Shown: piece by piece, positions 25,010-57,497 of the stretch
Layout of the letters: every line of letters begins with the position of its first letter
Numbering within the stretch: the first letter of the stretch is position 1
Assembly (NCBI RefSeq): GCF_044324875.1
Contig: NZ_CP172185.1
From: Escherichia coli
Lineage (GTDB): Bacteria; Pseudomonadota; Gammaproteobacteria; Enterobacterales; Enterobacteriaceae
Direction: 5' to 3' (one strand)
DNA: 64,000 nt
Notes under the pieces: generated by a model
Seen by the model: only the letters and a program-made list of their open reading frames with translations
Databases searched by the model: none
What the model was told of the DNA's origin: nothing
Position numbers and translations under genes: made by a program

Positions 25010-25050
25010 GCCGGATGCGACGCACGGGTGTTACGCATGTCGCATCCGGC
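25010..25050. repeat. REP-like palindrome between convergent recD and argA
   Basis: gccggatgcgacgc ... gtcgcatccggc inverted repeat read directly. Confidence 0.45.
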
Positions 25051-30225: not shown

Positions 30226-30257
30226 GGTCGGATGCGACGCGAACGTCTTATCCGACC
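30226..30257. repeat. REP-like palindrome between convergent tcdA and csdE
   Basis: ggtcggatgcgacgc gaacg tcttatccgacc. Confidence 0.45.
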
Positions 30258-30268
30258 TGGTTCTGTGC

Positions 30269-37786: not shown

Positions 37787-37894
37787 AATCGCTCCTGCAA
37801 TATAGCCGGATAACATTGCTTATCCGGCTAACCACTCTTGCTTGTTCAGGCCCGGTAGCCGGAGCGACCGGGCATCACATCAGGGAGTAATGTA

Positions 37895-41565: not shown

Positions 41566-42213
41566 ATGGAACGAAATAAACTTGCTCGTCAGATTATTGA
41601 CACTTGCCTGGAAATGACCCGCCTGGGACTGAACCAGGGGACAGCGGGTAACGTCAGTGTACGTTATCAGGATGGGATGCTGATTACGCCTACAGGTATT
41701 CCATATGAAAAACTGACGGAGTCGCATATTGTCTTTATTGATGGCAACGGTAAACATGAGGAAGGAAAACTCCCCTCAAGCGAATGGCGTTTCCATATGG
41801 CGGCCTATCAAAGCAGACCGGATGCCAACGCGGTTGTTCACAATCATGCCGTTCATTGCACAGCAGTTTCCATTCTTAACCGACCGATCCCCGCTATTCA
41901 CTACATGATTGCGGCGGCTGGCGGTAATTCTATTCCTTGCGCGCGTTATGCGACCTTTGGAACACGCGAACTTTCTGAACATGTTGCGCTGGCTCTCAAA
42001 AATCGTAAGGCAACTTTGTTACAACATCATGGGCTTATCGCTTGTGAGGTGAATCTGGAAAAAGCGTTATGGCTGGCGCATGAAGTTGAAGTGCTGGCGC
42101 AACTTTACCTGACGACCCTGGCGATTACGGACCCGGTGCCAGTGCTGAGCGATGAAGAGATTGCCGTAGTGCTGGAGAAATTCAAAACCTACGGGTTACG
42201 GATTGAAGAGTAA
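41566..42213 (+). CDS. fucA: L-fuculose-phosphate aldolase (class II)
   Basis: 215-aa ORF. Confidence 0.95.
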   Translation: MERNKLARQIIDTCLEMTRLGLNQGTAGNVSVRYQDGMLITPTGIPYEKLTESHIVFIDGNGKHEEGKLPSSEWRFHMAAYQSRPDANAVVHNHAVHCTAVSILNRPIPAIHYMIAAAGGNSIPCARYATFGTRELSEHVALALKNRKATLLQHHGLIACEVNLEKALWLAHEVEVLAQLYLTTLAITDPVPVLSDEEIAVVLEKFKTYGLRIEE

Positions 42214-42237
42214 TTTCGTAAAGCAACAAGGAGAAGG

Positions 42238-43389
42238 ATGATGGCTAACAGAATGATTCTGAACGAAACGGCATGGTTTGGTCGGGGTGCTGTTGGGGCT
42301 TTAACCGATGAGGTGAAACGCCGTGGTTATCAGAAGGCGCTGATCGTCACCGATAAAACGCTGGTGCAATGCGGCGTGGTGGCGAAAGTGACCGATAAGA
42401 TGGATGCTGCAGGGCTGGCATGGGCGATTTACGACGGCGTAGTGCCCAACCCAACAATTACTGTCGTCAAAGAAGGGCTCGGTGTATTCCAGAATAGCGG
42501 TGCGGATTACCTGATCGCTATTGGTGGTGGTTCTCCACAGGATACTTGTAAAGCGATTGGCATTATCAGCAACAACCCGGAGTTTGCCGATGTGCGTAGC
42601 CTGGAAGGACTTTCCCCGACCAATAAACCCAGTGTACCGATTCTGGCAATCCCCACCACAGCAGGCACTGCGGCAGAAGTGACCATTAACTACGTGATCA
42701 CTGACGAAGAAAAACGGCGCAAGTTTGTTTGCGTTGATCCGCATGATATCCCGCAGGTGGCGTTTATTGACGCTGACATGATGGATGGTATGCCTCCAGC
42801 GCTGAAAGCTGCGACGGGTGTCGATGCGCTCACTCATGCTATTGAGGGGTATATTACCCGTGGCGCGTGGGCGCTAACCGATGCACTGCACATTAAAGCG
42901 ATTGAAATCATTGCTGGGGCGCTGCGAGGATCGGTTGCTGGTGATAAGGATGCCGGAGAAGAAATGGCGCTCGGGCAGTATGTTGCGGGTATGGGCTTCT
43001 CGAATGTTGGGTTAGGGTTGGTGCATGGTATGGCGCATCCACTGGGCGCGTTTTATAACACTCCACACGGTGTTGCGAACGCCATCCTGTTACCGCATGT
43101 CATGCGCTATAACGCTGACTTTACCGGTGAGAAGTACCGCGATATCGCGCGCGTTATGGGCGTGAAAGTGGAAGGTATGAGCCTGGAAGAGGCGCGTAAT
43201 GCCGCTGTTGAAGCGGTGTTTGCTCTCAACCGTGATGTCGGTATTCCGCCACATTTGCGTGACGTTGGTGTACGCAAGGAAGACATTCCGGCACTGGCGC
43301 AGGCGGCGCTTGATGACGTTTGTACCGGTGGCAACCCGCGCGAAGCAACGCTTGAGGATATTGTAGAGCTTTACCATACCGCCTGGTAA
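42238..43389 (+). CDS. fucO: lactaldehyde reductase (1,2-propanediol oxidoreductase), Fe-ADH family
   Basis: ORF with tandem ATGs at 42238 and 42241 (true start could be either); Fe-ADH motifs. Confidence 0.92.
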   Translation: MMANRMILNETAWFGRGAVGALTDEVKRRGYQKALIVTDKTLVQCGVVAKVTDKMDAAGLAWAIYDGVVPNPTITVVKEGLGVFQNSGADYLIAIGGGSPQDTCKAIGIISNNPEFADVRSLEGLSPTNKPSVPILAIPTTAGTAAEVTINYVITDEEKRRKFVCVDPHDIPQVAFIDADMMDGMPPALKAATGVDALTHAIEGYITRGAWALTDALHIKAIEIIAGALRGSVAGDKDAGEEMALGQYVAGMGFSNVGLGLVHGMAHPLGAFYNTPHGVANAILLPHVMRYNADFTGEKYRDIARVMGVKVEGMSLEEARNAAVEAVFALNRDVGIPPHLRDVGVRKEDIPALAQAALDDVCTGGNPREATLEDIVELYHTAW

Positions 43390-43407
43390 ATGCGCTGATG
43401 TGATAAT

Positions 43408-43440
43408 GCCGGATGCGACGCTAGCTGCGTCTTATCCGGC
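43408..43440. repeat. REP element between convergent fucO and xni
   Basis: gccggatgcgacgc tagct gcgtcttatccggc, followed by a partial second copy (ttgcatccggcacgcc). Confidence 0.5.
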
Positions 43441-43493
43441 GTATAAGTTCATTAAATTCAATGTGTTGATAATCGTTTGCATCCGGCACGCCG

Positions 43494-45727
<2,234 letters not shown>

Positions 45728-57257: not shown

Positions 57258-57331
57258 GACAGAAAACCAAAACCGGCTTCATAAGAAGTCGGTTTGAGAT
57301 TACTGACGAAGTGGTTTACGGGGCCGGTTTT

Positions 57332-57433
57332 CCCCCTCGCCCTTTCAGGGAGAGGGGCGGGGTGAGGGTAATCATTCGCACTTGCGTTGGCCTGTTCCCC
57401 TCACCCTAACCCTCTCCCCGGAGGGGCGAGGGG
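57332..57433. repeat. large imperfect palindrome (about 37-bp G/C-rich arms, about 28-nt spacer) between convergent gudD and barA
   Basis: Left arm ccccctcgccctttcagggagaggggcggggtgaggg vs right arm cccctcaccctaaccctctccccggaggggcgagggg are near reverse complements. Confidence 0.55.
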
Positions 57434-57497
57434 ACTGTCTGTGCTGCTCCCAGCATTGGCATTGGACGGAACCTATTTTGACTCGACAAGACGTCCA

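Follow-up and report, generated by a model that had tools for sequence, protein, structure and literature searches.

The REPs of Escherichia coli are palindromic units that carry a conserved GTAG tag and occupy extragenic positions at the 3' ends of transcription units, and inverse pairs of such units make up BIMEs. BIME-1 elements consist of one z1 and one y unit joined by an L linker, which is well conserved and often contains an IHF site, and BIMEs are known to vary from strain to strain (PMC3333891). The inverted REP pair with its spacer, the REPIN, is thought to be the unit mobilized by RAYT/TnpA-REP (PMC3337134, PMC3333891); mutation of the GTAG tag abolishes binding and cleavage by the REP transposase TnpA-REP (Ton-Hoang et al., PMC3333891). 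At transcript ends, REP325 attenuates transcription and protects the upstream mRNA, and expression is higher for convergent genes that flank a REP (bioRxiv 10.64898/2026.03.23.713779). The closest described counterpart of the element analysed here is REP203 of E. coli K-12, a hairpin catalogued at 2931813-2931851 (Harris et al. 2026 supplement, bioRxiv 10.64898/2026.03.23.713779). The K-12 RefSeq record contains no REP features at this junction or elsewhere in the 49-kb stretch examined, so that its silence at the junction means nothing, and fucO, xni and ygdG are all absent from the RepRanger supplements.

The window considered here is a 64,000-nt stretch of an E. coli genome (NZ_CP172185.1), in which the + strand encodes fucA and fucO and the - strand encodes xni and sdaB (41566-45727, ORF list). 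The fucO and xni genes are convergent and their stop codons are separated by a non-coding gap of 104 nt. The first-pass annotation had placed its REP cluster at a convergent fucO/xni junction, and both the ORF list and the annotation of matching genomes confirm this placement: a 301-nt junction query matched 5425 of the 5426 complete E. coli genomes, and the flanking annotation was always fucO/xni. The length of xni is 756 nt in the annotation of near-identical genomes. A 109-aa ORF on the + strand (43400-43729) is antisense to xni and was dismissed. Our main reading, to which we assign a probability of roughly 0.78, is that the fucO/xni gap contains the remains of a BIME, that its intact unit, REP1, is likely a two-way 3'-end element, and that the 54-nt form of the gap found in K-12 arose by deletion. 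The features of the junction are as follows.

42238..43389, + strand: fucO (lactaldehyde reductase) CDS, from the ORF list and a 100% identical E. coli genome annotated fucO
43387-43389, + strand: fucO stop codon, TAA
43408..43440, + strand: REP1, intact z2-type palindromic unit, from the inverted repeat, the REP pattern, the fold and the Rfam naRNA4 alignment
43408-43421 and 43427-43440: arms of REP1, enclosing the loop TAGCT at 43422-43426
43441..43444, + strand: degenerate CTAC tetranucleotide, here GTAT, from orthologue alignments
43441..43473, no strand assigned: L-type linker of 33 nt, as in BIME-1 and atypical BIMEs, from homology to BIME linkers
43456-43468, + strand: one-mismatch match to the IHF consensus, overlapping the next feature
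43459..43471, - strand: predicted IHF site, TATCAACACATTG, an exact match to the IHF core consensus WATCAANNNNTTR
43474..43488, + strand: REP2 remnant, CGTTTGCATCCGGCA, from alignment to the right half of REP203, to complete BIMEs and to the xni-proximal REP of Citrobacter
43494-43496, - strand: xni stop codon
43494..44249, - strand: xni (flap endonuclease Xni, formerly ygdG) CDS, from the ORF list

REP1 lies after fucO in the extragenic space between the convergent genes, at the 3' end of a transcription unit, and starts 18 nt past the fucO stop. On the + strand its orientation is that of an iREP, the GTAG-type REP being read on the - strand. Its sequence, GCCGGATGCGACGC-TAGCT-GCGTCTTATCCGGC (43408-43440), comprises two inverted 14-nt arms that are 86% complementary and enclose a 5-nt loop, forming the imperfect, GC-rich palindrome of 30-40 nt typical of E. 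coli REPs, with one unpaired C/U position and one G.U pair in the stem. The strict REP pattern GCCGGATGCGNCG-N3-9-CGNCTTATCCGGC has a single match in the 64-kb window, at REP1, and none in 100 shuffles, and the predicted hairpin is stable in the RNA of either strand (-26.0 kcal/mol and z = -5.3 for the + strand; -22.6 kcal/mol and z = -5.8 for the - strand). Positions 42-76 of the Rfam model naRNA4 (RF02564), a stretch that corresponds to the z2-type hairpin ACUGCCuGaugCGaCGCUUGC.GCGuCUuauCaGGC, align with REP1 almost base for base (27.6 bits, local E = 0.0024), and the only systematic change from the consensus is a compensated foot pair, G:C for U:A. The score remains below the gathering score of 59.5 because only half of the model is present, and besides naRNA4 the Rfam search of the element yielded only noise. 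Every stem position is paired (100%) in the six long-form orthologues (see below), and pairing is likewise retained throughout the stems of the four short-form orthologues, whereas loops and flanks are variable. One stem pair goes from G:C in E. whittamii through G.U in N96/CT265 to A:U in K-12, covariation that does not reach significance in alignments of just 4 to 6 sequences. The claim of one full REP is therefore borne out by the inverted arms, the strict-pattern match, the fold and the z2-type naRNA4 consensus; the alignment to REP/BIME consensus sequences that had been proposed as a check was carried out, REP1 matching the z2-type consensus and the linker aligning with those of BIMEs.

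The second unit, REP2, is shorter. In what follows, the inner arm is the one adjoining the GTAG/CTAC tag and the outer arm is the other. The sequence previously quoted as a degenerate second unit, TTGCATCCGGCACGCC, is present at 43477-43492, and the REP2 remnant that we delimit there comprises the loop (TTTG) and the outer arm of a y-type unit in the orientation opposite to that of REP1, ending 5 nt before the xni stop. The GTAG tag and the inner arm are missing, leaving only 15 nt; the remnant is thus a genuine piece of a REP, as the first-pass annotation held, although it is a truncated unit rather than a degenerate whole one. The core of REP2, GCATCCGGCA (43479-43488), is a perfect 10-nt complement of 43407-43416, but this pairing is absent from the predicted RNA folds, which are dominated by the local REP1 hairpin.

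The 33-nt spacer between the two units provides a further link to BIMEs. As a query we used the 65-nt E. albertii version of the linker region, which runs from one REP tail through CTAC, the spacer and GTAG to the other REP tail. It yielded full-length matches of 77-79% identity at other E. coli loci, including ettA/nadR, where a y unit is followed by CTAC, a 31-nt linker, GTAG and a z2 unit, and epmB/yjeJ, where CTAC, a 36-nt linker and GTAG join a z1 unit to a y unit in a textbook BIME-1. A related arrangement, at 77% identity over 66 nt, is found at the K-12 barA/gudD junction, which has a y unit, CTAC, the linker, GTAG and a decayed unit, and its linker has the 13-mer ATTAAATTCAATG in common with that of the window. 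The aligned linkers share the core GTGCATT.AAATT.AATG. In a shuffle test, the observed score was reached by 4 of 2000 shuffles of the E. albertii linker and by 105 of 2000 for the window linker, which is the more diverged of the two. These alignments identify the 33-nt spacer as a homologue of the L linker found in genuine E. coli BIMEs. A 66-bp tandem duplication was also considered, given a 21-nt direct repeat (43387-43407 and 43453-43473, 71% identity), and rejected on two grounds: the outgroup sequences, with GTTAAT in place of GATAAT, make the similarity weaker, and the second member of the repeat belongs to the L linker common to unrelated loci.

With a z2-type REP1, a REP2 remnant and an L-linker homologue of 33 nt between them, the earlier suggestion of a decayed BIME-like cluster is well supported. 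Because only the loop and outer arm of the second unit are left, the inverse pair is incomplete and the element is a BIME remnant rather than an intact BIME. The L linker is that of BIME-1, but the composition is not the one z1 plus one y unit of that class: REP1 is z2-like, and both the remnant and REP203 are y-like, a z2 plus y composition that would make the element an atypical BIME under the classification in PMC3333891.

The tag next to REP1 has decayed as well. The tetranucleotide that follows REP1 is CTAC, the complement of the GTAG tag, in E. albertii and in strain E69, ATAT in other E. coli long alleles and GTAT in the window, which therefore lacks the conserved tag of E. coli REPs; the assignment to the REP family accordingly rests on the stem consensus and on orthology. 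With its tag mutated, REP1 should no longer be recognized by the REP transposase, and the window copy is predicted from its sequence to be immobile, a fixed fossil rather than a mobile copy.

The junction is polymorphic in E. coli. The 104-nt form occurs in 1469 of the 5426 complete genomes (27%), including those of Nissle 1917, JJ1886, ATCC 25922 and APEC O1, and nearly all the others, K-12 and B among them, have a 54-nt gap with a single hairpin, which in K-12 is GCCGGATACGACG-TTTG-CGGCGTATCCGGC. REP203 combines a left arm of the REP1 type with a loop and outer arm of the REP2 type. Two further variants were observed. Strain Z503 (locus L031) encodes FucO and Xni proteins identical to those of the short-allele laboratory strain B25FEP-TDT, yet carries the long allele, and the head of its REP1 is GGATACG, as in K-12 REP203, which suggests recombination between long and short alleles. 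In PM06121 (locus L030, at about 100-120), a 12-nt deletion removes CGTTACCGTACC, the xni stop codon included; the annotated xni of this strain is 780 nt long, against the usual 756 nt, and extends into the REP remnant.

Both forms extend beyond typical E. coli. A single scan of species-representative genomes, made with a degenerate FucO C-terminus pattern, recovered 21 loci and missed E. fergusonii, E. marmotae and E. ruysiae. The long form is present in E. albertii (xni 95% identical to that of the window) and in E. coli E69 (92%), in both cases with CTAC intact and GTAG after the linker, and in Escherichia sp. MOD1-EC7003 (96%), which has ATAT in place of CTAC and no trace of the second unit. 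The short form is present in E. whittamii (93%) and in E. coli N96 (95%). Citrobacter species (about 78-80%) carry two REPs whose tag ends face each other (CTAC...GTAG), the outer arm CATCCGGCA being located a few bases from the xni stop. No REP was found at the junction of Kluyvera, which has a conventional hairpin with a T-rich tail, or at that of Enterobacter sp. JUb54, where a different inverted repeat was recognized by eye and a terminator scan of the junction found nothing. The remnants of E69 and of the window are of equal length but differ in sequence (GGTAGTATTCGGCA versus GTTTGCATCCGGCA), so that TTTG could be a mutated GTAG instead of a REP loop. The alignment of fucO to the window is limited to the final 75 nt of the gene in the divergent E69 (locus L014, CP089930.1, 12588-12662), so that the rest of fucAO is missing or replaced upstream.

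What the element does is suggested by its K-12 counterpart. REP203 is listed among the REPs located within experimentally mapped bidirectional terminators, in both log and stationary phase (Table 16 supplement, bioRxiv 10.64898/2026.03.23.713779) and coincides with the overlap of the convergent transcript 3' ends (bioRxiv 10.64898/2026.03.23.713779). Given this overlap, REP1 most likely serves the window strain in the same way, as a two-way 3'-end and stability element, with the proviso that the 3'-end mapping comes from K-12 and that REP203 and REP1 are not strictly the same hairpin. The underlying mapping study is probably that of Ju et al. 2019. Also in favour of a 3'-end role, REP325 acts both as a terminator and as an mRNA stabilizer (bioRxiv 10.64898/2026.03.23.713779), and Kluyvera, whose junction lacks a REP, has a conventional hairpin with a T-rich tail in its place. 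The REP1 hairpin would form in both the fucAO and the xni transcripts and mark their 3' ends, which would be set by stopping or pausing of RNA polymerase, by a block to 3'-to-5' exonucleases, or by both. It does not have the hairpin-plus-U-tract structure of an intrinsic (Rho-independent) terminator: REP1 is followed by no U-tract on either strand, and a terminator scan of both strands of the junction returned no site.

The same element could be a decaying selfish BIME/REPIN left by the REP transposase, without any effect on the expression of fucO or xni, a reading that shares the identity assigned above and differs from ours on function only. We regard it as somewhat unlikely, though it has substance, considering that one REP has decayed, that the CTAC tag is mutated, that the hairpin has no U-tract past it and that the element varies in presence among strains and species at no obvious cost; in addition, terminal REPs have no genome-wide effect on mRNA half-life (bioRxiv 10.64898/2026.03.23.713779). 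Against a functionless fossil, some GC-rich hairpin is present at the junction in every allele and genus examined, the stems stay fully paired while the loops and flanks vary, and REP203 coincides with the mapped convergent 3' ends. A function of a different kind may be envisaged for the polymorphism itself. REPs located within 15 nt of a stop codon are reported to cause ribosome stalling and to lower translation (Liang et al. 2015, as cited in PMC12306157). Both alleles have 18 nt between the fucO stop and the hairpin, but the distance from the hairpin to the xni stop is 6 nt in K-12 and 53 nt in the window. The K-12-type hairpin is thus within the stalling range of the xni stop and that of the window is not, so that the allele would set the level of Xni; that the long and short forms constitute an old regulatory polymorphism across species, acting without a change of promoter or protein, is nevertheless doubtful at best.

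Another possibility is that the main role of the element resides in the linker, which would still bind IHF in the manner of RIP/RIB elements or BIME-1 and act through DNA bending or local chromosome structure and not through an RNA hairpin. The L-type linker does hold an exact match to WATCAANNNNTTR, one of only four in the whole 64-kb window, both strands counted, and IHF sites are frequent in BIME-1 L linkers (PMC3333891). However, the exact match is limited to some E. coli long alleles, such as those of the window and JJ1886, and is weaker in the outgroups: there is one mismatch in VCSW5 and there are two in E. albertii and E69. Furthermore, the linker is wholly absent from 73% of the E. 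coli genomes. An IHF-based main role, as predicted from the consensus matches, therefore appears unlikely.

With regard to the origin of the two forms, the ancestor of Escherichia probably possessed a complete pair consisting of a z2-type unit, CTAC, the L linker, GTAG and a y-type unit. In the lineage of the window, the y unit would have lost the GTAG tag and inner arm, with REP1 and the linker staying intact. The short form would have arisen by recombination or slippage between direct repeats, namely, the two arms of the ancestral pair that contain GCCGGAT (GCCGGATGCGACG for the left arm of unit 1 and the consensus GCCGGATAAGGCG for the inner arm of unit 2). Such a deletion would take out the loop and right arm of unit 1, the linker and the tag, leaving one hybrid hairpin 6 nt from the xni stop. 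The short hairpin of E. whittamii has outer-arm-type sequence on both sides (GCCGGATGCG...CGCATCCGGC), as a fusion of outer arms predicts. A complete two-REP form was not found at the junction in any of the 5426 E. coli genomes, and with a synthetic full BIME as query the best match in E. coli was the long allele, aligned with a 22-nt gap, which makes the deletion scenario a reconstruction. Each form is found in at least two species, which implies that the polymorphism is old, that alleles were exchanged between species or that the event recurred.

The polarity could also be reversed, the 54-nt REP203 form being ancestral and the long form resulting from insertion of a REP and an L linker into it. 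The short form is indeed found in E. whittamii and in the divergent E. coli N96, the complete two-REP form is missing from E. coli, and TnpA-REP is able to recombine REP and linker sites in vitro (PMC3333891). Yet the long form is present in three divergent lineages (E. albertii, E69 and MOD1-EC7003), and the putative junctions, after GCGACG and before TTTG, are not the CC|T iREP/linker cleavage sites of TnpA-REP (PMC3333891), both of which make insertion into REP203 less likely. In addition, the short hairpin, unlike a natural REP, has outer-arm-type sequence on both sides, and the Citrobacter junction contains two REPs. We consider this order of events distinctly improbable and retain the deletion from an ancestral BIME.

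Half-sites of REPs were sought in the window by exact and one-mismatch scans. The 10-mer GCATCCGGCA occurs in 6 copies versus 0.22 expected from shuffles, and because three of the six are inside genes, the motif alone is weak evidence for REP2; stronger evidence is that the remnant aligns with the outer arm of the short-allele REP and with those of complete BIMEs elsewhere. Similarly, the REP foot motif GCCGGATGCG is found in four copies within coding sequence (window positions 136, 15007, 30529 and 56468), and motif-only screens for REPs give false positives because CCG-GAT-GCG are common codons. That the second unit merely resembles a REP by chance, as these genic copies might suggest, is most improbable, given the low expected number of copies in 64 kb, its location at 38 nt from a REP within the 104-nt non-coding gap, its base-for-base alignment with the outer arms of REP203 and of complete BIMEs, and the REPs of Citrobacter at the same position adjoining the xni stop.

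Several other repeats of this kind were noticed in the window. A 41-nt palindrome at 25010-25050, GCCGGATGCGAC...GTCGCATCCGGC, has outer-arm-type sequence on both sides and corresponds to the convergent argA/recD junction of K-12, a position that is overlapped by one row, 2950580-2950631, of the Table 16 supplement (bioRxiv 10.64898/2026.03.23.713779). The convergent csdE/tcdA junction contains a REP-like unit, GTCGGATGCGACGCGAACGTCTTATCCGAC (30227-30258), with a compensated foot (GTCGGAT...ATCCGAC), and a short hairpin in the fuc operon, between fucI and fucK (37804-37831), AGCCGGATAA-CATTG-CTTATCCGGCT, has sequence of the inner-arm type on either side. The window contains a second strain-variable intergenic repeat at the barA/gudD junction, where a G/C-rich repeat with CCCTC and GAGGG blocks (57300-57480) takes the place of the REP, L linker and decayed unit of K-12 (L027, 12880-12960).

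Overall, the element is ordinary, a member of a class that has been described in depth, with a K-12 counterpart that is already catalogued; its import beyond annotation, i.e. confirmation of a REP/BIME remnant at a catalogued junction, is small. It does offer a worked example of lineage-specific decay of a REP pair, by loss of half a unit in one case and by fusion into a hybrid hairpin in the other. The two alleles, in which the hairpin is separated from the xni stop by 6 nt and by 53 nt, also constitute a natural pair for the study of REP distance effects on translation and 3'-end formation.

Among known systems, REP203 of K-12 occupies the same locus at the same 18-nt distance from the fucO stop, and it is identical to REP1 in its left flank and left arm. 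Its TTTG loop, right arm and right flank correspond to CGTTTGC...ATCCGGCACGCCG of the window, by which the second unit is recognized as part of a y-type REP, namely its loop and outer arm. The two loci differ in that REP203 is one hybrid hairpin in a 54-nt gap, close to the xni stop, whereas the window has a complete z2 hairpin, a linker and half a unit in a 104-nt gap, the hairpin being 53 nt from that stop. BIME-1 and the atypical L-linker BIMEs display the same order of REP, CTAC, an L linker of roughly 31-36 nt, GTAG and REP, with tag ends facing each other, and those at epmB/yjeJ (z1-L-y), ettA/nadR (y-L-z2) and barA/gudD (y-L-decayed) have the linker core and IHF-like sequence in common; the window departs from them in its truncated second unit, mutated CTAC and missing GTAG, and from BIME-1 in combining a z2-like instead of a z1 unit with y. 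REPINs are similar as pairs of inverted REPs with a spacer, but here one REP half is deleted and the recognition tetranucleotide is mutated, so that mobilization is not expected. Finally, REP1 aligns to the second hairpin of the model of naRNA4, the transcript of the REP325 BIME cluster, but only half of that model is matched here, and the fucO/xni locus is not a naRNA4 gene.
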